Assembly: GCA_964373715.1 (NCBI GenBank)
Contig: CAYJVR010000005.1
Location: 46,805 to 110,804, forward strand
Reading direction: 5' to 3'
Source of the DNA: an uncultured Planctomycetia bacterium
GTDB lineage: Bacteria; Omnitrophota; Gorgyraeia; 1-14-0-20-64-10
Length of the DNA: 64,000 nt
Within the stretch, counting starts at the first letter, position 1, and every line of letters begins with the position of its first letter. Shown here piece by piece: positions 3,001 to 37,369 of the stretch. The position numbers and the translations under genes are program-made. The notes beneath the pieces were generated by a model, which was not told the DNA's origin, did no database searches, and saw only the letters and a list, made by a program, of their open reading frames with translations.

Positions 3001-5892
3001 GAAAGCCTGGTTGCCGAAAGCCCGGCTTTCACGTCCGGCCAGCAAAACCGGGTACGGGAAATCCTCCGGAAGCCATTGTTCCCTGACGATGGCGCTCACC
3101 CTGCGGGCGTTTTCCGCTTCAACGTTCCGGTCGAAATCCCGGATCACCTGGTAGGTCGCCTGACGGCGGTCTTCGATATTCTGTTTTTCCAACGCGCGCC
3201 GGAAAGAGAGCCGGTCATACGGCAGATCAATGAGCATCTGGCCGGTCAGCCAGGAAACCCACCTGTCCCGGTAATTCCGCAGCATCTGCATCCGGCCCAA
3301 CACGTCGGCATCCGGCTCGGCATCCATCCGGTCCTCAAGGGTCAGGGTATCCACGTTGGCCAGATCACCCATCTCGGGACTGGGCAAACGGCTGGCATCG
3401 TTAAAGAAGTAGGCCCATGTGTTCCCGTGATCCACCACGGGAGAGTGGAGTACATTCAGAAGTTTTTCCTTTTCGTCCTGGGACATCTGCTGATAGAGCG
3501 CCAGCGTCAGGTGGGCCGCCTCGCGCGCGGAAAAACCGGCCGCCTGGGCAAACTCCTGAAAAAGGCCGACCGCATAAAGGACCGGACGGGCCTCATCGTA
3601 GCGGGAATCGGCCAGTTCGTCGCCGATCGTCGTGTCAAGCCGAAGCGCGGATTCCTCGTCCGTCAAATCCATGGTCATCGCGTGGTTGGCCCGAAGCTGA
3701 ATTGGAAGGCTGTCGGATTCCAATCGGTCGCGAACCCGCTGGACAACCGAAGTATCCTGATAAGCGGCCAACTTCAGGAGGCCTTGCCTGGTCCACTCAA
3801 GAACCCGGGCTGTGGCCGCCTGGTCCTGATCCTGGGCTTCAGCCGTCATCTGTAAGTCGGCAACCGTGCCGGAGGCGAAATTCAACTCAGCCGTACCGAC
3901 CAAGCGGCCGACCTGGCGCTTCGCGACCTGAAGGCCTCCGTCGGTAACGCGGGCGACTTTCGTGGCGAATCCTCTGGCCGGCTTGGTCACAAGGGTAGTT
4001 TCCTCCAAACCGCCCGTCACCGCCGAGGGCCAGATCTCCGTGTTGCCGTTCACGAAGAGTCTGCCGTCCGGCGATGCCTTCAGCATCAGTTTTCCTTTAT
4101 CCGGATCGGCGAAAAGGGGCTGCTGCGTGTCCGGATCGGTCTGGGTGATGGGAACAAGGGTCAATCCTTGAGGCGAGAAAACCGCACCGATAGGACCCAC
4201 CAATTTGAGCGTGCCGCCCCCAGTGAAACCCCGGAACCCCGGCCTCACATCGAGATAAACGGACGGCTCGACCTCCACAGTTACGCCGGCCTGCTGTGTC
4301 AAAACATGAAGCCGCTGACGGCTCTTCTGGTCCCGTGTTCTGGTGGCCCGGACAACCGCCTGGTAATCCTTGGCGGCCCCGTACTGGAGCTGATCCACCT
4401 GCAAAACGCCGAACCGGATATCGGGCTGGCTTCCGACAAAGGTCGGGATATGGGTCGCGAACATCTCAATGTTCCGCCGCTGCTGCCCGAGAAGGTCATC
4501 CCTGTCCCGGTCCACGTGTCGCAACGGCAAAGTGAGCCCGGCGGCGCGCGCGGCGGCTTTTTCAGAGAGCTTGAGTACGCCCGTGTTGAAACCAAACGGG
4601 TCGGTTCCGCTTGCCGCAACGGCCTGGTCTTCAACCTGATTGAAAACCGGCAGACCGGCAATTCCCTTCGCCGCATCCGGCTCCCGCTCCGCCTTTTCGA
4701 TAATCAGGTGCATCACCTGGCCAGACGGCAAAACAACATCCACCAGCGTGCCGCCGACCGGGGATGTCCTCGACACCTTGGCCGTGGCCACCGGCGCTAC
4801 ATCCAGATCAGCACTGGCAGAAAGCACTCGGGCGATGAATTCACCGCTGTTGAGGACCGGGTCGTCCCCGTAAAGCACAAGCCATGATTTTCCCTGCTGG
4901 ATTTTCCTCTTCTGCGCAAACTGGTAGGCCGCCTGGAAAGTGCCAAACGTGCCGTTGGGGTTGCGCAAAATAACGGGTTTATTCGTGCCCGGATCAATCG
5001 ACGTAAGAATCTTCCCGGTCTGAGGATGGAAACTGGGGAAGGTCCCCTGCGCCGTCACGTTGATGCGAACCCTCTTGGAATCAACGAAACGGCTGTTCTT
5101 CCGAATATCGTTGGCCACCGCCTCCGCGCTATCCGGAGCGTCCACCACGATCACCTCGACCCCGCGCGCATCCACAAGCCGCGCGAGCTCCGAAACCTCT
5201 TCGAGCGTCTGCACGATAGGGCTGGTCCCTGAAGGGCCTATCATCACGGTCGGTTTCTCTAGCCGGGTCAGCCTATTCAGCTGTTCCCTCAGCTCGGCCC
5301 ACAAGCTTTTCTTGAACCGGGCCCCGCCTCCTCCGGCTGCCACAACGATGACCGTATTCTCCAGGAGCTGTCTCATTTGCGCATGGCTCCAGGCGTAGGA
5401 CTGAGACTCCCCGATCGGCGTGGTCGATGGGGGGCGATACGCGGAAACATCAAGCGCCTCGATCATTTGCTGAACAGACTGCACCGGCTGATTTAAGACG
5501 ATGCTCACAAGCTGATAAAGCGTGGCTGGAGGATTGACTGGTTTGCCGGCATAATCCGCAAGCCTGGCCAAAACGGTTTTATCTGCGAGGCGGCTCAACT
5601 GATCGCGCAGACGCCTCTTATCCGACTGAGAGAAGGAGCTCCACCCCTCAATCAATTTGGAGGCGGTCAACTCCTCCAAACCAGCCACGGAGGCTGCGTC
5701 CGCCAGCCCTTGAAGGCGCAGCCTCAAATCATCTAAGCCGGCCTGGCCCTCAGGCTGCTGGACGCGAAGGGTCTGATCCCCTTTTTTCCGGTCCTCAGCA
5801 AAGGCGGGAAGAACAGGAGAGAAAATCAGCGCCTGGATAAGCACCCAGGCACTGATTTGATTAACTATATGGTTGGAACGATAAGTTTTCAT
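1..5892 (-). CDS. Giant multidomain protein, 3'-partial (start ATG at 5892; the frame stays open to position 1, so the C-terminus lies beyond the window; at least 1964 codons are present)
   Basis: I translated the minus strand by hand from the ATG at 5892. It reads MKTYRSNHIVNQISAWVLIQALIFSPVLPAFAEDRKKGDQ... and stays protein-like without any stop down to position 1, where the frame is consistent (5892/3 = 1964). It is missing from the ORF track only because it has no in-window stop. All plus-strand track ORFs in this 5.9-kb stretch are short, R/G/P-rich antisense frames. The protein has a signal-peptide-like N-terminus. Tentative motifs include a Gly-rich loop (AAGGGGARFKK) with a downstream FGFNTGVLKL segment reminiscent of UDP-sugar pyrophosphorylases (roughly 4480-5350), and a SAGPTTGYCIPKD motif near the window start. 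Confidence 0.8.
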   Translation of the reverse strand, partial: MKTYRSNHIVNQISAWVLIQALIFSPVLPAFAEDRKKGDQTLRVQQPEGQAGLDDLRLRLQGLADAASVAGLEELTASKLIEGWSSFSQSDKRRLRDQLSRLADKTVLARLADYAGKPVNPPATLYQLVSIVLNQPVQSVQQMIEALDVSAYRPPSTTPIGESQSYAWSHAQMRQLLENTVIVVAAGGGGARFKKSLWAELREQLNRLTRLEKPTVMIGPSGTSPIVQTLEEVSELARLVDARGVEVIVVDAPDSAEAVANDIRKNSRFVDSKRVRINVTAQGTFPSFHPQTGKILTSIDPGTNKPVILRNPNGTFGTFQAAYQFAQKRKIQQGKSWLVLYGDDPVLNSGEFIARVLSASADLDVAPVATAKVSRTSPVGGTLVDVVLPSGQVMHLIIEKAEREPDAAKGIAGLPVFNQVEDQAVAASGTDPFGFNTGVLKLSEKAAARAAGLTLPLRHVDRDRDDLLGQQRRNIEMFATHIPTFVGSQPDIRFGVLQVDQLQYGAAKDYQAVVRATRTRDQKSRQRLHVLTQQAGVTVEVEPSVYLDVRPGFRGFTGGGTLKLVGPIGAVFSPQGLTLVPITQTDPDTQQPLFADPDKGKLMLKASPDGRLFVNGNTEIWPSAVTGGLEETTLVTKPARGFATKVARVTDGGLQVAKRQVGRLVGTAELNFASGTVADLQMTAEAQDQDQAATARVLEWTRQGLLKLAAYQDTSVVQRVRDRLESDSLPIQLRANHAMTMDLTDEESALRLDTTIGDELADSRYDEARPVLYAVGLFQEFAQAAGFSAREAAHLTLALYQQMSQDEKEKLLNVLHSPVVDHGNTWAYFFNDASRLPSPEMGDLANVDTLTLEDRMDAEPDADVLGRMQMLRNYRDRWVSWLTGQMLIDLPYDRLSFRRALEKQNIEDRRQATYQVIRDFDRNVEAENARRVSAIVREQWLPEDFPYPVLLAGRESRAFGNQAFLFGNSGYALKTAEVVELTQQLLDAAKGEQFLSGMDAVVKSAPVWAQPELRKSAQRVKDLMAHVGPGTGRIRQQVYGPGKVISLTQFAGAIQQLRENLDIFYTQARQVFRQSQERAVKASREGVGRRPRQQDVAAKFTEAQQSLTSFSSEAGVLAAAINKLEEAILRAESYAAAYSVLMQRPSKSGSEKFKGNELEEKPEQEEALRKLVRLGGQNTYMSPSYDWVAEATDIIEAAPLFIYERTIEVDGKHVTVFEVDQEGLEQTIRQMADYWAQNIEKTMDSEHLALAREMVVYSTPALLDRARVLTEQGLPAEAAHRQAIQEVNSSEREQLLRRVSLTAAWLAREFDRRAEEIERYTEQRWAEQHFIDRLEALRLRAVGAPESGNYPDQCRESISQALASAKDLQAQAERLAPVAMMRRRPLPAFHLLTTEAPGLVEGFIQTVLEEEMALKNVVRSKNLDGEVRRRTQAYAQRIQQLGWQVIQEFGYEPIAEQYQVQGMNREQAIQQVISDHLAIQEEVARFAVLVEAAEADAVAAGGSFQFDPAHPDTDWVENLLKDQGTRAAFEQEAVPKVWERNQLDPDLADRVAQLTKGGTPQPQAVAQAIRESELYRRELESTVRWAARHRVLDQLDRQRPQLQLQDRARRWYRNHSGLSRTTARRETIAANKLQASMGDPRYAYSSGTLLEKKDGSFRPTGGRKRYHLIYAPSRVNLGKGERSSVEVWPQWVGVTDVLAAAHAKRFYELMNFNPQIRHIKEAENLKVSENQWTAMIRAVRNVQAYFVSRLGVGDIEDLAFQFNQRGGLPVAAIKEGESYSAGPTTGYCIPKDLLFKLFVASLQDSRKLTQIGIAKHLQPAVMGMMVHLAASQGEFETAGEWERWAAGELLSPEALQARFSPADATALQKAFAAYVEVTGGAVVYHLTKLSQILQTTGVPSPLLARGQSLHAALWSNWADRRLTLPAEEVNRSVVFSMTRDIPESVAESRRLNPSVAVAQETGIR

Positions 5893-5942
5893 AGAGATCT
5901 ATTGTCATTCGGATAGACCAGAAAAACCGGGAATCCGGACTT

Positions 5943-8900
5943 TTACGCCTGCAGAGCCAAGGTCGCCCGGTCCACGAACGATTCCCAGAGGGCCAGAGAT
6001 TCCGGCAGCAGCTGGATCCTGAACAGAGCCAACAGAATCTGCTCCAGGGTGCCCGAAACCGACCGGTTCACGCCCACATCCTCCACCTGCCCGACCCCGT
6101 ACACCTGTTTCAGGTAGAAATCGGCCGCCGCTATCGCCGAATCCCGGTTCGGCGTGTTCGCCGCCGTATCGCCGATCCGGAAAATCGAGTTCTCCGAGAA
6201 GCCCATCTCGATCAGCTTCGCCTTCTCCTGCACCGTGTCCACCACGAACGCCACAGGCAACAACTGCCCGTCCGTTGTTTTCACACGGCTTAAAGCCGCT
6301 CCGATCGCCAACCCCTTGACTCCGTCCAGCGTACCGGCCATCACACCCACCGAAAGACTGGCCGTATCGGCCGACGGCAGAGATACTCTCTCCAACATCA
6401 ACTCCAAACCGGTCGGCACGTTGCTGCCGGAAATATTCGTCCGGGCGGCAACGGTCGAAAGAACCGGAGTAAAGATCTCTGTCGGCACCAGAACCGTGAT
6501 TGATTCCAAACCGGCCTGCTGCAGCTGCGGGACGAGGCCGTTGGGCCCTATCACTCTGGGCTGTATCCCCTCGATAGCCGGTTTGCCTCCCTGAGCCGGA
6601 GCGCCGCGGAAATTGGCCCAGGTATCCTGGACAAACGCGTTCTGCTCGGCCGGCGGATGTATCTCGGCGTAATCGGGGATAATCTTTCTTCCGCGGAAAT
6701 CATCCTTCGCCTTGGAAGACTCTATATCCTTCGCCGCCTGCTCCTCCAGCTTCACAAACTCGGCCAGCGCATCGCGCAAAGTGATCCCCGGACGCTCCTG
6801 CGCCAGGGTCTGCCGCTGATGCTCCCATGCCGGATCCGGCGAAGCCTGCGTCAACAGGTTGGCCACCTGAGCCAACTGGCCGGCCTTGGCCAAAGCATCT
6901 ACCCGGTCATAGACCCCGCGCAACGCGTAATGCAGGATAAACCGGCTGTAGGCGTCAATGGCAAGCTGAACGGCATCTGCATCTGTTTTCATGTAGTTTT
7001 TGCCGAGACCCGGAATACCGGGAGCCGTTACCGGCTGTTGATTTTCACCCTCAGGCGTCCAGGTCTGCGGCGTATCGAGATAATATCCGGAAACCGGCGC
7101 CGGCTTGCCCTGGACCGCCTGCAGACGGGCCCTTGCGTCCTTCATAAGATCAACCGTATCCTGACGGAAAACACGGAAATCAAACTGATGCCGCGTCGCC
7201 TTGTTCCGGGAAATATACTTCCCTTCGTTCCGCTTGACGGCAAACAGGTTATCCATGAGAACCCACGCCGGCACAATCTCGTTAAAAGCAGGCGCAAGAC
7301 CGGGCAGGGTTTCTCCCGGGGTATTGATCAGCGCAAACGGGAACGCCACCGTCTGCGGCAGTGTTTTGACGCTCGTCGCAATCAGCAGGTAAGGAGACCC
7401 CGAGAAATTCGACGGATACTTGATATCCACGCTCAAGCCGAAGAAGGTCCCTTCGCCCGGCAAAATCTCCTGGTCCGGTTCCTTCCCTGTGTGGTTCGAT
7501 CCGACATTGGCGCCGTAGCCGATATTCCCCTTTCCTTCAGGCCAAACCGCAGCGATGAGCAACGCCTGATGGTGGAACCCGACAAACGGCCCCACGAGCG
7601 CGGCGGTGACTTCCCCTTCCGCCACCCCGGTGTTCGGACCAAGCACCGAACCGGTCACAAAACCACCCCGTTCGGCATGCGAATGTTCCAGCAAAACGCT
7701 CTCGCGCACCTGGGCGGCAGACTCCACGGAGGAACCCCACTGGATAACCGAGCTTTCCACAATCGCTCCATCGGTGATTTTTGTCTGTTCCGTGTTGCTG
7801 CTTAAAATCGTCGTGTCGCGGACGGCAGCGGCGCCGATGATCTGGGCCCCTTCGCCCACATACACGTTGGACACATCCCGGCTGTTGACGATCCGGGCTC
7901 CCTTTTCCACGATGCCGACCGGAGAAGCCGCGGCCGCCACATACTGCGCGTGCGCCGCGTTGTAGTCGGCCTGGAGGGCCTGATGCTCACGGCTGCGCAC
8001 CACAGCATCCCGGTCCGCCGCAGGAATCTGAGCCGGTTCCACCCCGTTGTACTTCGCGAGCAGTCCTTCATTCACTCCCGAAGTCGCCAAACGGGCCGCC
8101 GCGTCCAACAACATGTCGGCGAACGGCCGGATGATCCGACCAGCACCCTTCACGCCGACCGTTTCAGGGCCGACGGCGATCTTCGTACCGAGGCCGAACG
8201 ACGTCGGCTTCCCGGAGGCGGTCACATCGCCGTTCACGATAATGACGTTCTCCTTCACCACCTGATTAGACACCACAGAGTTGCCGTAGATCAACGGGTT
8301 CGAACCGATCCTGCTGTTGATGACCGTCGAGTCGTAAATTCCGAGCGGCAGGTTCACGCCGGGCTTAACCTCGGCAGTCCCCGTTCCGATGGACCAGATC
8401 TCCACGTCCCCGAAGAACCGGTTGTCCCGAATTTTGGTCAAATCTGTGGACGGTACAACCCGGACGCGGCTCCAATCCTCCGCACTGTTGCCCTGAGACT
8501 CCATCTGGGAAATCTGCGCCGCCGACAACTGGACCGGAGGAACGGCCGACTGCCACTGGCCGGAAACCACCTGCTGGACAGCTTGGAGGAACGGAGAACC
8601 GGCAATCGCCTCCTTGATCGCCTTCACCACGTCGTACTTCTCCTCCAAACCGGCTTGAAACCGATCCTTGATTTCTTGATCCAGACCTTTTTGATGGAGG
8701 GTGGCCATTGGAGTATTTACATCCGCTACAGCCAAAACCACCCGTGGTGCTTGGTTATTCAGTTGAAACGCTTCGGCAAAACCAACCGTACCCTCCATCT
8801 GGAGAGCAGTCAAAACATCCTGAACCAGTTGACCAGGAGCAGGTCTAACGTCTGCGACAACATACATCTTGGATCGCTGAGGATCTCCCGGAAACTCGGT

Positions 8901-11900
8901 GACCACCGTTTGAACTCGGGCCTGGCCTGGAACCGACTGAAGCACGGAGTAGCCTTGGTAGGCTTCAATAATCCCTTCCACTTCTTCATCCGATAATCGG
9001 GACCCGAATTGTGTATGGACGCCGGCTTCGACCGGAGGAACCGCTAAGGCCGTACGGATTGCATCTGCCACACCCAACTCCTGAAGTCTCTGGACCGATT
9101 CCCTCATATCCAAAAGCTCATAGGCAACTCGCATTCGCCCCTCAATCGGCTCTTGAGGATAGTTGTCCGACACAATGTCCTCTATGCTCAATCCTGCATT
9201 CGAGACCACCGTCCCGATGTCCCGGAGTAGTCCACTACGGTCCCACGTGGCGATGGCGATGACAGCGTGTTGGGGATTTCGGCTGTCCGGGTACATCCGA
9301 ACCTGCGGCTGATTGGTTTCAAAAACACCCAACCCCATTTCGAACAAATCGCCCAGAGCTCCTTCCGGAAGTTGTCGGAATGCCGCACCGCGAAGTCTTT
9401 CTCCAAGGAAATCAGCAGGAACCTGAATAAGCCCCGTCGGTGGAATGGCAGGGCCCGGACCCGGGCGGAATGTGGAAACCGGTTCCTGAGGCCCTTCCTC
9501 CAACGCCTCATCCCGGAAATGGCCGAACCTCTCCGCCAAAATTGCCCCAAAGGCCGCCACATTGAAATTCCCCAACGCATCTGTCGCATTCGGAACTGCA
9601 AAAATCCCTTCCGGATCCTGCAGTTCCGGGTTGTTGACCTGCTCTTCAGTAATCGGAGCTAGTTTTACCGGGCCAGCCTCGATAATGGAGCGCCGAATTA
9701 GATTGGTCTGACCTGGACCCGGCTTTTGCACGTTGTCATTGAGCGTAACCAGGAGAAATCGTCCATTCCTGGAGTCATACACTTGAGCATCTGTGTTCGT
9801 AGAGTCGGCAAAGTCGCTGTCTGTCATCACAAAGAGAACCAGGGTATCGTTGTCGAGTGGATATTTTGGGTTCACGCCATACTTAAGCCGATAAGCCGGA
9901 TCATCGGTATTCTCCGAATACTTCTTTTTATTCGGATCCACTGCTGCCAGAGGGCCATGCCACGCCGAGTCGTTCAACTGCGCCTCAGCAAAGATCCCCA
10001 GCATCGACAGAACCCTGGCTAACTCTTTCGCTGCCTCATAGGCCTGGCCGCCGCCGATAATATGAACCTTCCGATATTGGCTTAACTTCCGCAGGAGGTC
10101 TTCCAGGCGTTTTGCGCTGACTCTGTCCGCAAGCACCTCGGCGACCATAGCCGGTACTGTCCGCAAAGAATTCTGGAAATCGGCCGTGTTGCGGCCCAGC
10201 AACTCCCCCATCCTGGCCCCAACCGTTAAGAGAGCCAGATAGGTTAAGGGGTAAACGCTCACGTCATCCACGTCCGCTTCAAGAGAAAGATGGGCCACAC
10301 GGGTCGGATTGAACTTGCTGTCTCTCAAGCCCGAGACATCATCCGAGATCGTGACCAAGGGAACGCCCCGATCCCGCAAACGCTGTGCCAGCGAGATCAT
10401 TCGCTCCTCCGACCTCTCATCCTGCTGTCGAGGCACCTCTGCGCCTGTCCGCAGCTTAAAAGGAAAGGCCACCTGCGGCAGTTGAGCATTCGCAGGACCT
10501 CGGTTCCGGCCTCTGGAAATGAGGAAGACCACCGTGCCTTCATCCACCAGATCCTCAATCCCGCGATCGGTGCTCCGGAAAACCTTAATGTTCTCAATCC
10601 CAGACAAGAGCAACTCGGGCTGGGTGGCCTTAAGTTGCAGGCCGGAAAGGAGTTTCTCCGGTTCTTTCGGATCCGGGAGAAATGAGCTGGGATCCACAAT
10701 GTACTCTCGGCCGTTGAACGAAACCGTTTGAACCGCTTGGGTGACGGAAACCTCTTTGGTCTCCGGCTCTTTGCCTTGAGCGTAAGGGTTCAAGTCCGGT
10801 GCGTAACGGATGGTGTACCTCTTTTCCGCCGAATTATAGGAAGCGCGATAATACCAACCTCCAATCCGGACTCGGACACCTTTCGTATACAACTCCGATC
10901 GAACACCGGAGACGACAGGCTCTGTCCAGCCAAAGGGCCCTACGGCTGCCCCAGCGGCATACTGCGTGGCCTCTTCATCGGTCACGATGACAACCCTCGC
11001 TCTGGGCTCAGGAGCCCCTGCCGCTTTGCTGAACCGCTGGAGAAGCTGCCCAGCTCGCGTCTTATCTTCCGGATGGACCAGAACCCCTTCTGGCCCAGTC
11101 CATCTCTCCAACGCCATATTGAGCAAGAGGGGCAGACGCGAGATCGACTGCTGCCGGGGGGTCTGAAGAGCCGGCCAGGCTCGAGCGAGACCGCGCTGAT
11201 AGTTTCTGAATGAGGCCTGAGACCCTTCCACCTGCCCGGCTTGTTCCTGTGTCGTCACATACCGGGCGGCAGAAGCCTGAATCAGCTCTTCGCGGGAACG
11301 GGCGCCGCTGACCACAACAGACTTCGCTAAGTTTCGCGAGTTGTCGATCTGCGAATCGGTGATTCCATGGGCCCGTGCCAATGCCAGCGAAAACCGAAAG
11401 TACAGCGGTGCGTCTACCAAACCCTGGAGAGTCAAACGAACCCTTGGAACAATCACAAGGTCGATCTTTCCTTGTTCCTGAAGCTGGATCAGGCGCGCCA
11501 GATGCCTGTTATCCTCCGCAAAGGTCTGAACCACAACCTGAATCCCGGCCTGGGTGACCTCATCAATGGCTCTGATAAACTCGTCCAACCGTCCAGGATC
11601 GGTCATGTTGAAGATCGTCGCGACACGCTCCGCCTCGGGCACCTTGGGGTCCGCCGTCCTTAAAAGGAGATTTCGCCAGCTTTCATCCCCGATATCAGCC
11701 GCCTTCCCAACGAGCCAGGCAATTTCTTCTGCCTTGAGTTCTCCCTCAATGTAAATCGGATTGTTCCGGCTGCCGATGACAAGAACCTTCTGCCGATCCT
11801 TCCAGGCACGAGCCACGCGATTCACCAGAGACTCCACATCTTCCCGCGTATCGAGGACCCGGTTCCGGTCCTCCTTCCCCGGTTCGACAATCAGGCCGTA

Positions 11901-14900
11901 CACATGGTCCACCACTTCCCACAGATTTTGAACATAGGCCTTTCGCTCCGCATCCAGCTTCGGATCGCCGCGAAACTGGCTCATCTGAACGCCCAACAAG
12001 GAAAGAGAATATAGGACAGACTCAAAACCCTTTGTTGTTGCCACGGAAGACTCCGGACCGGACTTCACATCAATCACCCCGGCGCTTTCTTTCGAAAGCC
12101 GGCCCATATCCGACCCGGTCTTGCCGGTGACGGACATCATCGACACCCCTTCACTGGAAAACCGGTTGAAAAGTTTGACCGTGGAGGCGGTGCTCCCGGA
12201 CCAGCTCATTCCGACTGCCAAATCAGTCTTCGGATTGAGCTTGATCCCCCGGTTCTGAATATCGACCGGGTCGTAGACAAGTATCTCCACGCCCGGTAAA
12301 AGCTCCCGGAACAACTGCTCGGCCACCATGGCATCCCGCCAGGAGCTTCCCACACCGATCAAGAAGATCCTTCTTAAGTTCTCTAATTTCTGCCCAAAAC
12401 GGTCTCTCAAATAACCCGCGTTCAACGTCGGGATGTTGACCGAAACCGGCTGGCCCTGCTGATTGAAAGCCATGTACGAAACGGCTTGATCCAGAAGGAT
12501 CTTCGGAATCTCATCTATGTGCATCTCCATAAAGGTCCGATAGATTCCCTTGACCCCAAGTTCTGGAGAAACTGTCTCTTCTACCTTCTTCGCCTCCTTC
12601 GTCAATTCCTTTTCGGTCAGCGGAGAGCCGTCGAGGTGGGTGACGTCCACATTCAGGCGGGCAGCGCCCTGCTCATCCAGCCGCCGGGTCACCCGGGCAA
12701 ATTTGTTCAGCTCTTTAAGATGGTAAACATCCACCTTGTATTGTTTTCGGATCGGATCCGCCCTCTGCTCATATTCCCGCAGCGCATGGGTGACCTCCTG
12801 GGCATACTGCTGCGCATTGATCCCTCCTTGGCTGGGAGGTAACTGGCGAAGCTCCCGCAAATGCTCCAGGGTTTTCAACAACTGCTGCTGCATCTCGGAC
12901 AGTTTCCTCGCCGCCTCAGCCACCTCCGGCGCAGGGAAAAGGGCTATCCCGGCCGCATAGTCCGACGTCACAAGAATCCGTTCACCGACCATCACGATAT
13001 CGACCGGCCGGTCATGGCTGACCACGTAAGTCATCAAGGGGCTGTGTAAACTTGTCGCATTCACCCCAAGCTCTGAACCGTCCTCCATCTCCAGGGTTGC
13101 TACACGGAAAGCCACTTCATCCGGATTGATCTCGCGTCGGCCCTGAGCGCGCAAATTCTCCACCACTCTGTTCCAGACCTGGGCCCTGTTGAACTCGTTG
13201 CGGTCCTGGTTTAACTGGCCAAGGAGATTGAGTTTCACCATCAGGCCATCCGCTTCTACCCGGCCGGCCGCCTTATCCATCTCAAACTGCTTCGCCACAT
13301 AGTCCCAATGGACCACAATCGTCCGGGTGTCCGTGACAATGCTGTAGCGGGCTTTTGTCCCAGTCGGTGTTGTCTCCTCTGCCCAGTAATACCCCTCGAA
13401 ATCTTTGAAATACTGCGCTTCCGGTCCCGACTGCTGGAACGCTTCCATATGTTCCTTCCTCAAGGCGCTGTTGATCGTCCCCTTGACCTGGCCGTTGTGG
13501 ACAACGACCCTGCTCTTCGTGTTGTGGGGATGTGCATTCCATCGGCTCGGGTCGCCGGTCATCGCCCAACGGCCGTGCCCGACCACCATCTCTCCCAGGA
13601 GCCGTACCGTGAACTCGGTGACCGCCCCAAGGCTGTAACCCCGGCGATAAGTCCCCCGCTGCGGCTGGGTGGGATTGGAAACCCCTGTATCCACCTGCTG
13701 CTGACGGATCTGGAGAATCCTCTGGTAGACCTTATCCGGCAGGAGGGGAGCCTGGATCACTTGACCGTTCTCGACGATATCCACCTTCTGGGTATGGGCC
13801 CAGTCATGAAACCAGTCGACCAAAGCGGCAAAGGCATGCCCGGGCATATTCAGGTTCCGTTCACGCTTCCAGAAGTCAAACCAATTCTTCCCGCGACCCG
13901 GTACCCGCTCTTCAAACCGCCGCTTCACCTCGGACAACCACTCCGGATGAGCCTGAAACAGGCCGATCAAGCCCCCCTGCATTCGGAAAACATGGCGGGT
14001 CGGATCCACATTGTAATCGGGTGGAACCACAAGCCAGCGGCCCACAAGAAAGTCCATCACCTCATCCCATCGTTCATGCTCCTTTGGCGTCAGCTGCCCG
14101 GAGAGCGCCCGACTGGAGAGGAGGTCATAAACTCGCATGATCTCCTGTGTCTTACCGGGAATCAAACCTTTAGCTTCCTGGAGAGCGTGGGAGAGTTCTG
14201 CCCGGAGAAACAACTGGACAAATTCGGGTGTCAAATCAAACAGACGGCCGATTTCCCGAACAAGATCCGGAAGGTCGTTATGCCGAATCAAGACCTGATC
14301 GCCGGCCCAGACACCGCCGACTCGCCCGACTTGAACGCTGGCTCGTCCTTCAAAAAGATCTCCGAGTGTCGTCCTTGTCAGATCGTAAAGAGGCCAGCGG
14401 CCTGTTCCAATTTGTTCTGAAGTGGGCACGAATTCCATCAGCCCCTCTTCACTCAAAAGCTTAAAACCTTGTAGACGCGCCTCGTGAACCGCCGAAGGCA
14501 GTAGCCACTCTCTTTCTCGGCGCCGCGCTTCTGACCAAGCCCCGGCTGCCTCCTGCCGGTACTGTTCCTTCTGCTGGGGAGAAATCCCTTGTTGACGCGA
14601 ACGGGCCCAGACCAGGCGGCCTCTGTTGATGCTCTCCTGTATTTGCTGTAGCAGATCATGCTGTGGTTGATAGGGGTTTCCTGACATCGTCTTATCGGCA
14701 TGGGGAAATGTCTCTGGGTAGATCGGATAATTGTAAAGATACTGAATCAGAGTACCCGGCTCACCATCTCCCTGCCCCTGGATGTCCATGCCCGCCTTCA
14801 CCACGCGCGGTCCCTCCTCCGTCCACACCAACAAACCGGTGTTGTCCGGAGCCCGGTACTTGAGGCGCAATACCGCGTCCAGAATTGCGCGAATCCCTCC

Positions 14901-16019
14901 ATACTGGCCGAAAACGGAGTTGACGCCGCAGCATCCGACGATCTGTTCCAACGCCTCGGCATCGGCCAAACGGGCCCGGCCCGGAAGGATCTTCGCCAAC
15001 GCCGAATCGTTCAGCGAGGTCCACACCAGCGCGGTCTGGACCGGCTGATTGCTCCGGACAAACTCGCTGATGCTGAACGTCCTGTTGTCCTCTCCGACAA
15101 AAGAGATTTCCGTAGGGGTCGCGTTGACGGAAAAAACACGATCCCGGTCAAGAAGGGAGATCCGCCCGGTGCCGTCAATCGCCAGCGTGACAAAGTGAGG
15201 ATGCGCTTCGTTATCAATGTTCCGCTCCACAGCCACGGTCACCGCCTGCACCTTCCCCTGGTTCTGCCGGATCAGATCAATCGCCTGACGGAAGACAGCC
15301 GCCCCGGTGTCGCTGAAAACAACTCCCTGAGAAGCGCCGCCTCGCGCCGCTCCCATCGAAGCGATCTCATTCAAGTCTAATTGCGCCGATCCGTCCGGAC
15401 CGAGCGGCCGGACCGAGCCGGTGTGAACCGCGTGGCGGGCCGCCATGTACGATTGATCAAAAACCAACCCCGCCGGATCCATCGCAAGAGATGATCCCTG
15501 GTGGTTCCGGGTCACGTACGCGGCGCAGGAAACGCATTGCGGATCCCCCATATCGGCGCCGGCAACGGCCTGCTGAACCGCCGGGTTACCCGGCGCTAAA
15601 AGGGCCGCCATGATCTGGTCCCACATCTTGGTGTTCGAGACCTCTTTGCCGTATTTTGAAAAAAGCAATTCCAACCGGCGGACCGCCTCCGCCTCATTAT
15701 CCAAAGGAGACTGAGGATTCCAGCCGGGCATGGTTTCAGACCAGATCGGATCGGCCGAAAAACGGCCGACAACATTCTTCAAGCTGCCAGTTCCGGTAAA
15801 GGGAGCGGCTATCGTCCGTAACGCCTCTTCCAACCCGGCCAAAACACCGGGGGCTTCCGAAGTCTGGCCGGGGCGCAACGCCCACACCGGGGCAACCTGC
15901 GTCAGAACAACGGACAGCATGGTGACGAAAGCAAACGATTGACGATAACCGGAAAACTTATGAGACCGCATCGATTTAATTCTCCCTATTAAATGATTTA
16001 ACTTCTCGTTTGGACTCAT
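5943..16019 (-). CDS. Giant (3358 aa) multidomain protein. It carries a papain-like Cys/His candidate region near the N-terminus, a GlmS-like glutamine amidotransferase (type 2) module, tandem SIS domains, a third SIS-like domain, an ACT domain and a C-terminal beta-helix module I identify from memory as DUF4954-like
   Basis: ORF-track ORF. N-terminus has a signal-like segment (MRSHKFSGYRQSFAFVTMLSVVLTQVAPVWA). Class II GATase matches: GCCGVNSVFGQYGGIRAILDAVLRLKYRAPDNTGLLVW (about 14900-14930) and HGRWAMTGDPSRWNAHPH / VVVHNGQVKG (about 13480-13590). SIS motifs: WSGSTASTVKLF / VATTKGFESVLYSL (about 12050-12450), VLVIGSRNNPIYIEGELKAEEIAWLV (about 11700-11800) and VHIIGGGQAYEAAKELARVLSMLGIFAEA (about 9980-10060). 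ACT-like segment: AIATWDRSGLLRDIGTVVSNAGLSIEDIV (about 9140-9260). Nucleotides about 6600-8560 encode hexapeptide-repeat sequence that aligns end to end with the stand-alone 663-aa protein at 34525..36516 (GAIVESSVIQWGSSVES ... GFHHQALLIAA ... GYGANVGSNHTGKEPDQEI ... VKRNEGKY). Confidence 0.85.
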   Translation of the reverse strand: MSPNEKLNHLIGRIKSMRSHKFSGYRQSFAFVTMLSVVLTQVAPVWALRPGQTSEAPGVLAGLEEALRTIAAPFTGTGSLKNVVGRFSADPIWSETMPGWNPQSPLDNEAEAVRRLELLFSKYGKEVSNTKMWDQIMAALLAPGNPAVQQAVAGADMGDPQCVSCAAYVTRNHQGSSLAMDPAGLVFDQSYMAARHAVHTGSVRPLGPDGSAQLDLNEIASMGAARGGASQGVVFSDTGAAVFRQAIDLIRQNQGKVQAVTVAVERNIDNEAHPHFVTLAIDGTGRISLLDRDRVFSVNATPTEISFVGEDNRTFSISEFVRSNQPVQTALVWTSLNDSALAKILPGRARLADAEALEQIVGCCGVNSVFGQYGGIRAILDAVLRLKYRAPDNTGLLVWTEEGPRVVKAGMDIQGQGDGEPGTLIQYLYNYPIYPETFPHADKTMSGNPYQPQHDLLQQIQESINRGRLVWARSRQQGISPQQKEQYRQEAAGAWSEARRREREWLLPSAVHEARLQGFKLLSEEGLMEFVPTSEQIGTGRWPLYDLTRTTLGDLFEGRASVQVGRVGGVWAGDQVLIRHNDLPDLVREIGRLFDLTPEFVQLFLRAELSHALQEAKGLIPGKTQEIMRVYDLLSSRALSGQLTPKEHERWDEVMDFLVGRWLVVPPDYNVDPTRHVFRMQGGLIGLFQAHPEWLSEVKRRFEERVPGRGKNWFDFWKRERNLNMPGHAFAALVDWFHDWAHTQKVDIVENGQVIQAPLLPDKVYQRILQIRQQQVDTGVSNPTQPQRGTYRRGYSLGAVTEFTVRLLGEMVVGHGRWAMTGDPSRWNAHPHNTKSRVVVHNGQVKGTINSALRKEHMEAFQQSGPEAQYFKDFEGYYWAEETTPTGTKARYSIVTDTRTIVVHWDYVAKQFEMDKAAGRVEADGLMVKLNLLGQLNQDRNEFNRAQVWNRVVENLRAQGRREINPDEVAFRVATLEMEDGSELGVNATSLHSPLMTYVVSHDRPVDIVMVGERILVTSDYAAGIALFPAPEVAEAARKLSEMQQQLLKTLEHLRELRQLPPSQGGINAQQYAQEVTHALREYEQRADPIRKQYKVDVYHLKELNKFARVTRRLDEQGAARLNVDVTHLDGSPLTEKELTKEAKKVEETVSPELGVKGIYRTFMEMHIDEIPKILLDQAVSYMAFNQQGQPVSVNIPTLNAGYLRDRFGQKLENLRRIFLIGVGSSWRDAMVAEQLFRELLPGVEILVYDPVDIQNRGIKLNPKTDLAVGMSWSGSTASTVKLFNRFSSEGVSMMSVTGKTGSDMGRLSKESAGVIDVKSGPESSVATTKGFESVLYSLSLLGVQMSQFRGDPKLDAERKAYVQNLWEVVDHVYGLIVEPGKEDRNRVLDTREDVESLVNRVARAWKDRQKVLVIGSRNNPIYIEGELKAEEIAWLVGKAADIGDESWRNLLLRTADPKVPEAERVATIFNMTDPGRLDEFIRAIDEVTQAGIQVVVQTFAEDNRHLARLIQLQEQGKIDLVIVPRVRLTLQGLVDAPLYFRFSLALARAHGITDSQIDNSRNLAKSVVVSGARSREELIQASAARYVTTQEQAGQVEGSQASFRNYQRGLARAWPALQTPRQQSISRLPLLLNMALERWTGPEGVLVHPEDKTRAGQLLQRFSKAAGAPEPRARVVIVTDEEATQYAAGAAVGPFGWTEPVVSGVRSELYTKGVRVRIGGWYYRASYNSAEKRYTIRYAPDLNPYAQGKEPETKEVSVTQAVQTVSFNGREYIVDPSSFLPDPKEPEKLLSGLQLKATQPELLLSGIENIKVFRSTDRGIEDLVDEGTVVFLISRGRNRGPANAQLPQVAFPFKLRTGAEVPRQQDERSEERMISLAQRLRDRGVPLVTISDDVSGLRDSKFNPTRVAHLSLEADVDDVSVYPLTYLALLTVGARMGELLGRNTADFQNSLRTVPAMVAEVLADRVSAKRLEDLLRKLSQYRKVHIIGGGQAYEAAKELARVLSMLGIFAEAQLNDSAWHGPLAAVDPNKKKYSENTDDPAYRLKYGVNPKYPLDNDTLVLFVMTDSDFADSTNTDAQVYDSRNGRFLLVTLNDNVQKPGPGQTNLIRRSIIEAGPVKLAPITEEQVNNPELQDPEGIFAVPNATDALGNFNVAAFGAILAERFGHFRDEALEEGPQEPVSTFRPGPGPAIPPTGLIQVPADFLGERLRGAAFRQLPEGALGDLFEMGLGVFETNQPQVRMYPDSRNPQHAVIAIATWDRSGLLRDIGTVVSNAGLSIEDIVSDNYPQEPIEGRMRVAYELLDMRESVQRLQELGVADAIRTALAVPPVEAGVHTQFGSRLSDEEVEGIIEAYQGYSVLQSVPGQARVQTVVTEFPGDPQRSKMYVVADVRPAPGQLVQDVLTALQMEGTVGFAEAFQLNNQAPRVVLAVADVNTPMATLHQKGLDQEIKDRFQAGLEEKYDVVKAIKEAIAGSPFLQAVQQVVSGQWQSAVPPVQLSAAQISQMESQGNSAEDWSRVRVVPSTDLTKIRDNRFFGDVEIWSIGTGTAEVKPGVNLPLGIYDSTVINSRIGSNPLIYGNSVVSNQVVKENVIIVNGDVTASGKPTSFGLGTKIAVGPETVGVKGAGRIIRPFADMLLDAAARLATSGVNEGLLAKYNGVEPAQIPAADRDAVVRSREHQALQADYNAAHAQYVAAAASPVGIVEKGARIVNSRDVSNVYVGEGAQIIGAAAVRDTTILSSNTEQTKITDGAIVESSVIQWGSSVESAAQVRESVLLEHSHAERGGFVTGSVLGPNTGVAEGEVTAALVGPFVGFHHQALLIAAVWPEGKGNIGYGANVGSNHTGKEPDQEILPGEGTFFGLSVDIKYPSNFSGSPYLLIATSVKTLPQTVAFPFALINTPGETLPGLAPAFNEIVPAWVLMDNLFAVKRNEGKYISRNKATRHQFDFRVFRQDTVDLMKDARARLQAVQGKPAPVSGYYLDTPQTWTPEGENQQPVTAPGIPGLGKNYMKTDADAVQLAIDAYSRFILHYALRGVYDRVDALAKAGQLAQVANLLTQASPDPAWEHQRQTLAQERPGITLRDALAEFVKLEEQAAKDIESSKAKDDFRGRKIIPDYAEIHPPAEQNAFVQDTWANFRGAPAQGGKPAIEGIQPRVIGPNGLVPQLQQAGLESITVLVPTEIFTPVLSTVAARTNISGSNVPTGLELMLERVSLPSADTASLSVGVMAGTLDGVKGLAIGAALSRVKTTDGQLLPVAFVVDTVQEKAKLIEMGFSENSIFRIGDTAANTPNRDSAIAAADFYLKQVYGVGQVEDVGVNRSVSGTLEQILLALFRIQLLPESLALWESFVDRATLALQA

Positions 16020-16056: not shown

Positions 16057-17877
16057 CTAATTCTTTGAAGGTGTGCCGACATCAACCCCGGCCGCCTCGA
16101 TGAAAGCCACTGGCCGCATTTCGCCCGCCACAGACCCCTTGGACTGGCGGTCTTCTTTATTCTCAGCCCGCAGATCCGGCCCGGGCACTGCCGGGATGCC
16201 GAGCTTCTTCCGGTACGGCTCCGACATAGGAACGTAGGTTTCCTTGAGGACACGGTGGTACTTTTCCGTATCCTCCGCGGTCACCTTTCCCACCTTGGGG
16301 GCGATGACAGCGTAGGAAACTTTCTTGTCCTTGAAGATCCTTTCGAAAACGGGGGTATGGAAACCACCGGCGATCAGGACCGCCACCGGCACCTTGAATT
16401 CCTGTATCCGGGCAAGCGCGTTCTCCACCATGGCTATATCCCGTTTCCGGGCCACTTCATAGAAAGAGCCCATCGCCGGTCTGGCGGCGGAGAGCGGCCC
16501 CGGGATAAGCGTGAAGGTAAAAGGAGGGTTCTGCTTCTCGCCCAAAGAGCGGAGGGTGTCGGCCCACTTGTCCGGCTTGAACTCATCCTTGTGGCTCGCG
16601 TAATAATCGTAGGTCTCGGGCGTCAGCTTAAGCTCCAAAAGGTCGGCCAAAACTCCCACATCTTTCGCCGTAAGGGCCAGAGATTTCTGTTCTTTCGTCT
16701 TGAAATAAGCCCCCTTGACCCGGTCGCTGAGTTTCTCCACCTCGTTGAAGAGAGACGCGTGGTCTATCTCTTCGAAAACGCCGAGATAAGCGATGTACTT
16801 CATTAAAACAGGATACTCAGCCGCTTGTTCAGGCTTCACGTAAACCTTCAAATAGCCGTAAAAGGTGGACGGGCTGATCAACCCCTGTTTGAGCTCTAAA
16901 CTCTGTTTGAGCAGACGATCCGCCTCCGCCTGTGAAAGATTTTTGGACAGCGCGTCGAGAAACTTCACCCGCTCCGTTTCAATCTTTTTAAAATCCAGCT
17001 CCCCTTCCAGCTTGGTGGCGGTAAGAAACCTTTGCAGGTTCGGAAACTCCTCCTGCTTCATCTCCACCTTAAGCGTGCCGGCCTCCTCCGCGAGCATCTC
17101 ATAATGTTTCGAGAGAGGAACCCGGCCGGCCTGGACTTCCAGTTCCCTGTTCTCGAGGTCCTTCACCTCTTTCGGATAAAGCTTTTCCTTCAAGAGGGCC
17201 ACCGCCTGCTGGAACCCCTTGATCGCCTGCCGGGCATTGCCTTGCACCTTCTCGACCGTAAAGAAGGCCTCCATGTTCTGGTCGTAAAGCTCCGGTTTCT
17301 CAACACCGTAAACGGTGAACGGATAATCGGTGGTCAGGTCCAGATAGTTCTCGCCGGAAATCTTGCCGCTCTTTAAAAACTCCTCCGCTACCTGTTTCCG
17401 TTTCTCAAGCGGGGCATAGGCCCGCATATAGGACAAGGAGTCGTTTCGGGAACCTCCCTCCACGAGGATCAGCGCAAGGCCGTGGATGGCGACCAGGTGC
17501 TCCAGCATGCCGGCCAGGTTCTTCTGCGCCTCATAATTGGCGTGAGCATCCTGAATGTGGATAATCAAAGGTTCCCGGGCGCTGTAGGTCTCCTTGATGC
17601 TTCCGTACTGGACAGGAATCCGCAGGGTATCCAACGTCAGGGGGATCTGTTCCTTGGGAGCCTGAATCGGCGCTTGAACGGTGATCTGCGAAGCGGCGGA
17701 GGGATCCTCGATCTTGCCGTGCTGTTCCCAAAAGGTTTTCTTAGGAGAAGAGTCTTCAGCGGCGAAAGAAGTTCCGTCCAGAGGCAAGCCGGCGCAGAGG
17801 GTTATCCCTAAGACAAAGGCGGGAATTCGTTTCCCCCACTCCATTCGGGGATTGATGGATTGGGCTGATTTAGTCAT
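16057..17877 (-). CDS. Secreted hypothetical protein (606 aa). First gene of the operon that continues into the two giant ORFs; the true start is probably the internal Met at 17844 (MEWGKRIPAFVLGITLCAGLPL, signal peptide)
   Basis: Long ORF with a signal-peptide-like N-terminus. Same strand as the giant gene, with only a 37-nt gap. I recognise no family. Slightly more AT-rich than its surroundings. Confidence 0.7.
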   Translation of the reverse strand: MTKSAQSINPRMEWGKRIPAFVLGITLCAGLPLDGTSFAAEDSSPKKTFWEQHGKIEDPSAASQITVQAPIQAPKEQIPLTLDTLRIPVQYGSIKETYSAREPLIIHIQDAHANYEAQKNLAGMLEHLVAIHGLALILVEGGSRNDSLSYMRAYAPLEKRKQVAEEFLKSGKISGENYLDLTTDYPFTVYGVEKPELYDQNMEAFFTVEKVQGNARQAIKGFQQAVALLKEKLYPKEVKDLENRELEVQAGRVPLSKHYEMLAEEAGTLKVEMKQEEFPNLQRFLTATKLEGELDFKKIETERVKFLDALSKNLSQAEADRLLKQSLELKQGLISPSTFYGYLKVYVKPEQAAEYPVLMKYIAYLGVFEEIDHASLFNEVEKLSDRVKGAYFKTKEQKSLALTAKDVGVLADLLELKLTPETYDYYASHKDEFKPDKWADTLRSLGEKQNPPFTFTLIPGPLSAARPAMGSFYEVARKRDIAMVENALARIQEFKVPVAVLIAGGFHTPVFERIFKDKKVSYAVIAPKVGKVTAEDTEKYHRVLKETYVPMSEPYRKKLGIPAVPGPDLRAENKEDRQSKGSVAGEMRPVAFIEAAGVDVGTPSKN

Positions 17878-20537: not shown

Positions 20538-20592
20538 CTTTTTCCTTGTTTGTTTTTTGTTTTACGCGTGTGATATCTGGCGGCGGGTTTAT

Positions 20593-36601: not shown

Positions 36602-37369
36602 TTACGACAAAACAAGCACGCGCGGCTCGGCCGGATACTCGCGTGTCAGCTTAGTAGATGCGGCCTTATCGATAGTGATGGTCGCCTTCGGATGCAGCTG
36701 GACAATCGTCGCCGGCACCATCGCGGTGATCGGCCCCTCAACCGTTTTCTGGATCGCTTCAGCCTTTCCAGCGCCGTTGGCAACAAGGACCAGCTGCCGA
36801 GCGTCCATAATAGTCCCAATTCCCATCGTGATTGCATATTTCGGGACCTCATTGAGGTTCCGAAAGAACCGGGCATTATCCTGCCGGGTCTTCTCATCGA
36901 GCGTCTTGACGCGGGTTCTCGAACCGAGCGAAGAACCGGGCTCGTTGAATGCAATGTGCCCGTTGGAACCAATACCCAAAAGTTGAACATCCAAACCGCC
37001 AGACTTGACGATCTGCTCCTCATACCAGCGGCAAAAACCGGGAATATCTTTGGCAGTCCCATCCGGAATATGAACGTTCTTGGAGTTCACGTTAATGTGC
37101 TTGAAAAGGTTTTCCCACATGAAAAAATGGTAGCTCTGGGGATGATCATGCGTGAGGCCGACATATTCATCCAGGTTGAAAGTGACCGTCCGGGAGAAAT
37201 CAAGACCTTCCTCTTTATGCAGCCGGATGAGTTCCTTGTAGGTCCCTAAGGGGGTTGAACCTGTTGCTAACCCAATGATAGCGCGCGGTTTACGGCGGAT
37301 AATATCAGCGATTATCTCGGCCGAAAGCTTCGAAACATCCTCATATGAGTCCTTAATGATCACTTCCAT
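36602..37369 (-). CDS. nagB: Glucosamine-6-phosphate deaminase
   Basis: 255 aa. GLATGSTP, TFNLDEYVGL, GIGSNGHIAFNEPGSSL ... SRTRVKTL and KYAITMGIGTI match E. coli NagB block for block. GGAGGAG lies upstream. Confidence 0.92.
   Translation of the reverse strand: MEVIIKDSYEDVSKLSAEIIADIIRRKPRAIIGLATGSTPLGTYKELIRLHKEEGLDFSRTVTFNLDEYVGLTHDHPQSYHFFMWENLFKHINVNSKNVHIPDGTAKDIPGFCRWYEEQIVKSGGLDVQLLGIGSNGHIAFNEPGSSLGSRTRVKTLDEKTRQDNARFFRNLNEVPKYAITMGIGTIMDARQLVLVANGAGKAEAIQKTVEGPITAMVPATIVQLHPKATITIDKAASTKLTREYPAEPRVLVLS

Follow-up and report, generated by a model that had tools for sequence, protein, structure and literature searches.

In this study, we report a giant gene on the minus strand of a 64,000-nt window of contig CAYJVR010000005.1, from an uncultured bacterium of the phylum Omnitrophota, together with a stand-alone gene for one of its modules that lies beside nagB in the same window (Table 1). 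The open reading frame (ORF) of the giant encodes a modular pro-protein, of a family so far known from Omnitrophota-type metagenomes. Comparison with known families shows its parts to be, in this order, a predicted Sec signal peptide, a C39-like peptidase, a double-glycine-type site, a GlmS-type glutamine amidotransferase, a second pair of SIS domains, an ACT-like region, a beta-helix module of the family DUF4954 and a conserved C-terminal domain. We propose a self-processing pro-protein whose GlmS-like part would aminate a sugar phosphate and whose DUF4954 module would be a transferase acting on the product or the substrate; to this explanation as a whole we give an even chance of being right. 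A sequence-only reading of the same DNA, made without database searches, had already described the fusion of GlmS-like and beta-helix modules in one ORF, which was confirmed by the alignment to GlmS, the Pfam matches and two assemblies. It had missed the signal peptide and the start at Met17, the C39-like domain with its double-glycine-type site, and the conserved C-terminal domain.

The giant ORF and its amidotransferase

Coordinates given here follow the window numbering, and residue numbers that of the 3358-codon ORF, which is a single frame open without interruption over 10 kb. A ribosome-binding site (GGGAGA) is located 8-10 nt 5' of Met17 and the public gene calls also start at this codon; therefore, the real gene is probably the one beginning there. 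The call from Met17, of 3342 aa, is identical in two independently assembled sequencing runs, so the fusion is genuine and not an assembly artefact. That it arose by mis-assembly, or by the loss of stop codons between separate genes, is extremely improbable. The sequence is of metagenomic origin, and the protein was missing from a word-index protein search with aa 1-1600 (the sole match was P0121, a stand-alone relative) as well as from an exact-sequence look-up of the 3358-aa version, the latter being empty because the deposited call begins at Met17. Against an artefact stand the two assemblies and the unbroken frame, together with the presence of the product in a representative library and with divergent relatives that repeat the same module order.

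Table 1. Features of the giant gene, its neighbour and the nagB-DUF4954 pair in the window.
Feature	Position (nt)	Strand	Basis or remark
Giant gene, 3342 aa from Met17	5943..15971 (open frame to 16019)	-	ORF, ribosome-binding site, independent gene calls
Sec-type signal peptide MRSHKFSGYRQSFAFVTMLSVVLTQVAPVWA/LRPG, aa 17-47	15879..15971	-	Predicted, read from sequence; motif ..TQAxPAWALRPG kept in relatives
C39-like papain-fold cysteine-peptidase domain, aa 62-350	14970..15836	-	Family alignment, profile vs PDB, Pfam in relatives
Double-glycine-leader-like site LADAEALEQIVGC/C, aa 351-363; predicted cut Cys363/Cys364	14931..14969	-	Position counts in 22 giants
Class-II (Ntn) glutamine amidotransferase domain, aa 364-1143	12591..14930	-	GlmS alignment, residues kept
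Insertion within amidotransferase domain, ~400 aa (aa ~405-808)	13596..14807	-	Common to all long GlmS-like relatives
SIS pair 1, GlmS isomerase-like half, aa 1144-1575	11295..12590	-	Pfam SIS, glmS model, GlmS alignment
Linker and second SIS-pair region, aa 1577-2106	9702..11291	-	Pfam SIS ~1978-2030; homologous region in P0121 and giants
ACT-like region, aa 2107-2456, last residues QAGLEE	8652..9701	-	ACT_4 below cutoff
DUF4954 module of giant, full-length, aa 2461-3138	6606..8639	-	Pfam, paralog alignment, family HMM
Conserved C-terminal domain of giant family, aa 3166-3358, ending ..TLALQA	5946..6524	-	phmmer
[A/G]-G-[L/M]-E-[E/S] motifs in giant, aa 61-65, 2456-2460, 3169-3173	15824-15838, 8640-8654, 6501-6515	-	Flank DUF4954 on both sides
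606-aa gene, 37 nt upstream of giant ORF	16057..17877	-	Homolog fused to N-terminus of GlmS-like giant in L034/P0133
Stand-alone DUF4954 gene, 663 aa	34525..36516	-	Pfam, alignment, AF2 model
nagB, glucosamine-6-phosphate deaminase	36602..37369	-	TIGR00502; 85 nt upstream of stand-alone DUF4954 gene

In a phmmer search against the PDB, Escherichia coli GlmS was co-linear with the giant in three pieces (E 6e-16). The first, a weak match, pairs the Cys region (aa 364-404) with GlmS residues 2-42; the second pairs aa 809-847 with residues 65-103, the HxRWA...NAHPH...HNG block; and the third pairs aa 1144-1570 with residues 232-607, which form the isomerase half down to the C-terminal NLAKSV motif. 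Like GlmS (TIGR01135; 1jxa, 4amv), the giant has a class-II N-terminal nucleophile (Ntn) glutaminase followed co-linearly by two SIS domains. The type-2 amidotransferase named in the sequence-only reading stands on this alignment and on the residues kept, while no Pfam GATase model matched the giant ORF at E 0.01 or better. An insertion does separate the Cys region from the HGRW block, with a length of approximately 400 aa instead of the 350 estimated earlier. Pfam SIS matched at aa 1212-1342 and, with 35.6 bits when that segment was scanned alone, near aa 1978-2030; the latter match, taken before for a third SIS domain, is really part of a second SIS pair (aa ~1577-2106). As to the ACT domain proposed after it, a weak ACT-like signal is present, below the Pfam thresholds (ACT_4, 18-21 bits against 27; ACT, 17 against 27).

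The glutaminase residues Cys364, Arg817, Trp818, His830, Asn842, Gly843 and Asp897 are the equivalents of GlmS Cys1, Arg73, Trp74, His86, Asn98, Gly99 and Asp123; Arg817, Asn842 and Gly843 were placed by the E. coli GlmS alignment and Asp897 by its TDT motif. The isomerase half retains Ser1225/Ser1226, the SWSGST loop at 1272-1277, Lys1429, Glu1432 and Lys1566, as equivalents of GlmS Thr302/Ser303, Ser347, Ser349, Thr352, Lys485, Glu488 and Lys603. It must be considered that two features count against a GlmS activity of this module. Its score with the glmS equivalog model TIGR01135 is 151.9 bits, far under the cutoff of 418.05, and Trp replaces both His504 (Trp1448) and Gln348 (Trp1273), the phosphate loop reading S-W-S-G-S-T against S-Q-S-G-E-T in GlmS. 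His504 is, in GlmS, the ring-opening residue supplied by the partner subunit; its loss together with that of Gln348 suggests an altered ring opening or specificity. Thus, by sequence, the module is GlmS-like and not a GlmS equivalog. The sequence-only reading had envisaged that missing catalytic residues could reveal a decayed pseudo-enzyme, and these two are indeed replaced, but the glutaminase residues and most of those of the isomerase are kept. Since the same substitutions run throughout the long GlmS-like subfamily, the deviations look like a trait of that subfamily and not like decay.

An exhaustive HMMER search with aa 131-1330 of the giant recovered 60 relatives at E<1e-30. About 40 are stand-alone proteins of 1450-1880 aa that start with MCG[IV]V, and 21 are giants of 2241-4868 aa in which the Cys is internal and preceded by a domain of ~300 aa; in all 21, a C39-like domain and a G-[GASC] site are followed directly by the nucleophile Cys. 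The stand-alone long GlmS-like proteins (P0121, P0138-P0186) have a glutaminase insertion of 300-400 aa, an SWSG[ST]T loop and a second SIS pair, features which the giant shares. P0121, whose JGI name is 'glucosamine 6-phosphate synthetase-like amidotransferase/phosphosugar isomerase', is 25% identical to it over 1100 columns. Unlike the giant, these proteins begin with MCG, as an ordinary Ntn enzyme does, and are without signal peptide, C39-like domain, DUF4954 and C-terminal domain. One of their loci (L001) adjoins genes of an OpuAC-type ABC transporter.

The fusion of a GlmS-like part to DUF4954 recurs in four clusters less than 50% identical to each other, namely those of the window giant (P0122), P0140, P0181 and P0184. 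In these four giants DUF4954 is the penultimate module and the conserved C-terminal domain comes next. The family hidden Markov model (HMM) of DUF4954 matched only 4 of 22 giants, the beta-helix modules of the others being no detectable members. Another giant, P0130 (3083 aa), continues after its GlmS-like part and a beta-helix with a phosphohexomutase of the GlmM type (PGM_PMM_I-III, residues ~2470-2850) and resembles GlmS, GlmM and a GlmU-like beta-helix in one chain. The C-terminal domain of the window giant had no match in Pfam; phmmer located it at the C-termini of 10 scanned relatives, in matches that start inside the final 200 residues and stop no more than ~15 residues short of the end. 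This domain of ~190 aa (..GLAIGAALSRV...PVAFVV.. ending TLAFQA) occurs in P0123-P0126, P0140, P0181, P0182 and P0184 and closes most giants, and the signal peptides of the family are unusually conserved (..LTILSFTFTQAxPAWALRPG). Both traits suggest a dedicated export or anchoring route.

Predicted cleavage before the nucleophile cysteine

The nucleophile of the giant, Cys364, follows Cys363 and has no start codon before it, so it is not residue 1 as in GlmS. The giant further differs from GlmS in its glutaminase insertion, in a coiled insertion before the SIS pair, in its signal peptide, and in that the GlmS-type C-terminal tail is not terminal, 1800 residues coming after it. A class-II amidotransferase, as an Ntn hydrolase, requires its catalytic Cys as a free N-terminal residue. 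Being internal and without a start codon, Cys364 could become N-terminal only by proteolysis; and since a signal peptide, a peptidase domain and a site precede it, the amidotransferase cannot work in the form in which it is translated.

A Sec signal peptide can be read at residues 17-47, with MRSHKFSGYRQS, a hydrophobic core and then VWA/LRPG. In the alignment of the domain that follows, a Cys (Cys165) is invariant, at least 90% of the sequences have the His of an H-F-V motif (His275), and an Asp and then F..W.G..L come after the His; Cys165 and His275, together with Asp291 or Asp293, are candidates for the catalytic residues. The HMM of this N-terminal domain matched 22 of 22 giants. A profile of 20 members had the C39 domain of PCAT1 as its top PDB match (E 0.0019), with six more PCAT1 entries, and Pfam Peptidase_C39 (PF03412) matched three of the 20 members (best E 1.7e-5), C39_2 and DUF3335 one member each.

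Directly C-terminal to this domain, a double-glycine-type motif was found in all 22 giants. Position -12 is L/I/V in 16 of them, -8 is E/D/Q in 18, -7 is L in 15, -4 is I/V/L/F in 20, -2 is G in 18 and -1 is G/A/S/C in 22. The consensus of double-glycine leaders is Leu(-12)-x3-Glu(-8)-Leu(-7) with a Gly-Gly/Ala/Ser ending, and C39 peptidases recognize the leader helix ~20 Å from the scissile bond (PMC6363468). Applied in a strict form to 70,000 residues of giants, the leader pattern gave eight matches, of which seven fall precisely at the nucleophile. We infer that a cut at this site, which would expose the Ntn cysteine, activates the enzyme, and that the C39-like domain next to it is the most likely protease.

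Several points tell against this assignment of the protease. The N-terminal domain of the window giant has no Pfam C39 match alone, the profile match to PCAT1, with an E value of only 0.0019, covers the His half of the domain, and the site in the window is a looser match, with Cys at -1 and with Leu and Glu off the consensus by one residue. Additionally, Ntn enzymes are able to process themselves, so the Cys363/Cys364 bond may be cut otherwise than by the C39 domain. Many Ntn hydrolases process themselves by N-to-S acyl shift autoproteolysis, and the propeptides of PurF and glutamate synthase are lost likewise. Such a cut before Cys364 by the amidotransferase itself, leaving the C39-like domain to act on other sites or proteins, is in our opinion unlikely. 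Self-processing Ntn enzymes, too, typically carry Gly at -2 and a small residue at -1 relative to the nucleophile, the C39-like domain in the window is very divergent, and West-Roberts et al. consider that C39 domains may cut other substrates (bioRxiv 10.1101/2023.11.21.568195). However, conservation extends to -12 (L-x3-E-L-x2-I-x-G-G), a helix that self-processing does not need, and the peptidase domain and the site are always together and adjacent in the 22 giants.

The predicted arrangement has counterparts in known systems. With the C39 domains of PCAT/AMS transporters (PCAT1, LahT, ComA) the giant shares a Cys/His papain-like domain with H-F-V...D-P/N-G...F..W.G..L, and with double-glycine leaders the giants share a substrate-like helix, L(-12)xxxE(-8)L(-7)xxI/V(-4)xG(-2)G/A/S(-1). 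In contrast to those transporters, the peptidase and its site are on one polypeptide, the site is C-terminal, no ABC transporter is fused and the whole comes after a Sec signal peptide; moreover, the predicted cut is followed by the catalytic residue of a different enzyme, a Cys, and Cys is also frequent at -1. Propeptide removal makes the Cys N-terminal in PurF of Bacillus subtilis and in glutamate synthase, where propeptides are of 11 to ~40 residues and without a protease domain, whereas the giant has ~347 residues ahead of its Cys, a peptidase and a signal peptide among them.

DUF4954 and its pairing with nagB

The beta-helix module of the giant and the 663-aa protein both belong to DUF4954, the name given in the sequence-only reading (PF16314; 112.4 and 179.4 bits, respectively, with a gathering threshold of 26.2), and they are, as also claimed there, paralogous across their whole length (40% identity over 685 columns, E 3e-150). 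The copy in the giant covers positions 3-625 of the 638 of the family HMM, is 42-47% identical to the nearest stand-alone proteins and retains all of the ~70 invariant columns, mostly polar or Gly/Pro, of a 148-sequence alignment. Stand-alone members have ~640 aa, while the giant carries its copy inside a polyprotein, between an AGLEE and an AGLES motif. The nearest named relatives of the 663-aa protein are from metagenome-assembled genomes of Candidatus Omnitrophota. At least 2028 PF16314 proteins at E<1e-10 were counted among the scored candidates, and the literature searched gave, for DUF4954/PF16314, two incidental mentions and no assigned function.

The position of the stand-alone gene directly 3' of nagB was likewise verified, the deaminase scoring 333.1 bits with the nagB equivalog TIGR00502 (cutoff 236.9) and 355.5 with NF001684 (326). 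The neighbourhoods of DUF4954 were surveyed with one genome per GTDB species in the best 80 of 321 relatives, by our own ORF clustering and tblastn, and 75 of the 80 loci had enough upstream sequence to be evaluated. The loci come from at least 10 phyla, including Omnitrophota, Planctomycetota, Sumerlaeota, Latescibacterota, Spirochaetes, Calditrichota, Verrucomicrobiota, Auribacterota, Firestonebacteria and others. A nagB homolog lay directly upstream, on the same strand and within 300 nt, in 55 of the 75, a proportion that may not hold family-wide because the 80 loci are those of the closest relatives; a NagB-family gene was present anywhere in the flank in 63 of the 75. Independent gene calls with Pfam labels gave the order ROK-NagB-DUF4954 in Ca. 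Sumerlaea chitinivorans and, on a contig of 1.1 Mb, in one further genome. In one locus nagB, glmS and DUF4954 are consecutive (L050), and in another glmS is upstream of DUF4954 in divergent orientation (L056). Other recurrent neighbours among 102 flanking genes were ROK (9), MtnX-like HAD-IB phosphatase (7), acetate kinase (3) and epimerases (3). The L034 locus, from a different Omnitrophota genome, has a GlmS-like giant that is fused to a homolog of the 606-aa gene of the window and adjoins a nagB-DUF4954-HAD run.

The pairing with nagB, the occasional adjacency of glmS in other genomes and the fusions in four clusters bear out the link of DUF4954 to glucosamine 6-phosphate (GlcN-6-P) that had been proposed from this window, and support, at the level of sequence and gene order, a tie to GlcN-6-P/fructose 6-phosphate (Fru-6-P) chemistry. 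An MtnX-like HAD-IB phosphatase is also encoded in the window (28818-29471, plus strand; TIGR01489 above cutoff) and stands near or beside DUF4954 in ~12 of the 80 loci, from several phyla (L010, L017, L034, L042, L043, L059, L063, L071 and others); it is a possible further member of the pathway.

The stand-alone protein was modelled with AlphaFold2 (AF2) from the 148-sequence alignment (pLDDT 89.6, pTM 0.89); an earlier model from 20 sequences (pLDDT 66) was not used. In the model, a helical domain at the N-terminus is followed by a left-handed beta-helix, which a helical hairpin interrupts, and by a C-terminal helical domain of ~200 aa. Its predicted fold is the left-handed parallel beta-helix of the GlmU C-domain, QdtC, LpxD, LpxA and ST0452 acyltransferases, in comparison with which DUF4954 adds both helical domains and the helical insertion. 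The structural comparison with GlmU and LpxA-type enzymes that had been suggested gave GlmU, QdtC and LpxD as the nearest, at 9-15% identity, which makes it a generic likeness. DUF4954 could alternatively be a non-catalytic beta-helix for ligand binding or scaffolding, similar to the C-terminal beta-helices of GlgC, GMPPA/B and eIF2B-epsilon, which would sense GlcN-6-P or Fru-6-P and regulate or organize NagB and the GlmS-like module; we regard this as doubtful. A metal site of the gamma-carbonic-anhydrase type was raised by weak profile matches and the invariant His residues, and dropped for want of positive evidence.

In weighing an enzymatic role as acyltransferase, three difficulties have to be set against it. 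An invariant loop of DUF4954 (aa 343-371 of the model; WPEGKGN..GSNHT..PDQE..GEG) is of low confidence, the family fills no obvious gap because NagA, GlmS and GlmU are present in these phyla, and it is not obvious what an acyltransferase would do in a pathway beside a catabolic deaminase. In monomer models, low confidence is common for loops that finish an active site from a neighbouring subunit. Two replacement roles were considered and rejected: that of NagA, given the bona fide nagA in the window and the nagA reported in Sumerlaeota, and that of GlmU in Omnitrophota, since glmU was found in 176 of 176 complete genomes.

Proposed role and genomic surroundings

In the explanation that we favour, the enzyme would be made inactive, its glutaminase needing a free N-terminal Cys, and would stay so until Cys364 is uncovered by the C39-like domain, which would cut behind G-[G/A/S/C] either in cis or in trans. 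The matured GlmS-like module would aminate a keto-sugar phosphate with glutamine, the substrate being Fru-6-P or a close analogue. DUF4954 would be an enzyme acting on the product or the substrate of the GlcN-6-P/Fru-6-P interconversion and most likely a trimeric acyl-CoA-dependent N-acyltransferase of an amino-sugar phosphate, of the GlmU, QdtC or LpxD type. The product of the giant would in this way be a modified hexosamine phosphate; beside NagB, the stand-alone copy would carry out the same chemistry. Given that Omnitrophota already have canonical glmS and glmU, the giant would be an extra paralog and not part of the housekeeping pathway.

It must be noted that the predicted signal peptide is at odds with this scheme, since it would place a machine dependent on glutamine, sugar phosphates and acyl-CoA outside the cytoplasm, where these substrates are not expected; a simple picture of cytoplasmic channelling is questionable. 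The problem would be lifted if the signal-bearing fragment were cut off before translocation, or if the protein acts in the cytoplasm of a prey cell. A different possibility is an exported effector of predation or of the cell surface, with SIS and beta-helix modules recruited for sugar binding or for action in a prey cell instead of for the own hexosamine metabolism. The Sec-type signal peptide, with a cleavage-site-like VWA/L and highly conserved in relatives, would fit such an effector, as would the location of the gene in the company of further giant ORFs with the same signal region and GLEE motif, the many genes with carbohydrate-binding modules (CBM) nearby, and published work that reads the giant proteins of Omnitrophota as secreted effectors targeting the cell wall. 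Nevertheless, the catalytic residues of the glutaminase and the isomerase are retained across the family, the DUF4954 module retains every family-invariant residue and P0130 adds an apparently complete phosphohexomutase, all of which are signs of catalysis and not of mere binding. We consider an effector of this kind quite improbable; catalysis in the prey cytoplasm is still compatible with these signs.

Regarding the surroundings, the window has a G+C content of 57.9% and contains four further very long ORFs besides the giant. The 22 giants contain 50 copies of the motif [A/G]-G-[L/M]-E-[E/S], against 5.7 expected from composition, located 10-25 residues past the signal peptide and at module borders. 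The motif is also found 66-122 residues from the start of the ORFs 1..5892, 45815..53128, 53085..56819 and 56839..63999, all on the minus strand, which are all the remaining giant ORFs of the window, and it may serve for processing, for sorting or as a linker. The first of these ORFs starts 51 nt beyond the downstream end of the giant and is truncated by the edge of the window; its product has 4734 aa in an independent assembly (L087), and no Pfam match was obtained in the 1964 aa seen.

The 606-aa protein encoded upstream of the giant had no match in Pfam, NCBIfam or the PDB sequences. Its N-terminus is signal-like, and it contains the motifs IHIQDAHANYEAQ and IAGGFHTP, which P0132 also shows by eye. 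Going by the motifs IHIQDAH and GGFHT, it is perhaps Tiki/TraB-like. The fusion of its homolog to a GlmS-like giant makes it a likely conserved functional partner. Between the giant and the nagB-DUF4954 pair, a block for utilization of chitobiose or GlcNAc-type sugars (18090-28284, minus strand) comprises a GH94 phosphorylase, a NagC-like ROK regulator, the nagA already mentioned and an ABC system with a permease carrying a CBM30 domain (24709..26001) and a solute-binding protein fused to a permease (26026..28284). Upstream of the pair, approximately six genes code for CBM30, CBM11, CBM9 or PDZ proteins (38705-45684, minus strand), and homologs of this run are similarly placed in two other Omnitrophota genomes (L017; L034, positions 700-8900). 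The ORF 33438-34607 (minus strand) overlaps the stand-alone DUF4954 gene by 83 nt when read from its first ATG, and its true start is probably further downstream; it had no Pfam or NCBIfam match. Rfam gave nothing in the window.

The components described here are of known kinds: GlmS-type amidotransferases, beta-helices, C39 peptidases and the giant proteins of Omnitrophota. In the last of these, C39 domains near the signal peptides had already been noted and the cleavage points were stated to be unknown (bioRxiv 10.1101/2023.11.21.568195). The order of signal peptide and then C39, the multi-enzyme content and the proposed post-translational cleavage agree with the giants in that report by West-Roberts et al. 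and in a 2026 complete-genome preprint, but the protein of the window is much smaller (3.3 kaa), GlmS-like or DUF4954 content is not mentioned there, and for the window protein a single point of cleavage is predicted with residue precision. As far as the literature searched goes, the rule-like pairing of nagB with DUF4954, the recurrent fusion of GlmS-like parts with DUF4954 and the double-glycine site at an Ntn nucleophile appear to be new.

The nagB pairing and the repeated GlmS-like fusions narrow the substrate space of DUF4954 to a few purchasable sugar phosphates, and with this an orphan family gains a role in amino-sugar metabolism that can be tested at the bench. In addition, for one giant of Omnitrophota a cleavage point is predicted to the residue, with the rationale that an Ntn nucleophile must be N-terminal. 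A broader proposal joins both lines: DUF4954 would be a missing amino-sugar enzyme that goes with NagB or GlmS, a new beta-helix transferase on GlcN-6-P or a neighbouring metabolite in at least 10 mostly uncultured phyla, and Omnitrophota would export C39-gated polyproteins that are active only after export. That both parts hold together is improbable in our estimation. If they do, the exported enzymes could act, for example, in a prey cell, diverting Fru-6-P and glutamine into a modified hexosamine, with the AGLEE motifs that mark module borders serving as additional sites for processing or sorting. A dedicated peptidase domain that unmasks the catalytic residue of the neighbouring enzyme would be a new zymogen control for amidotransferases.

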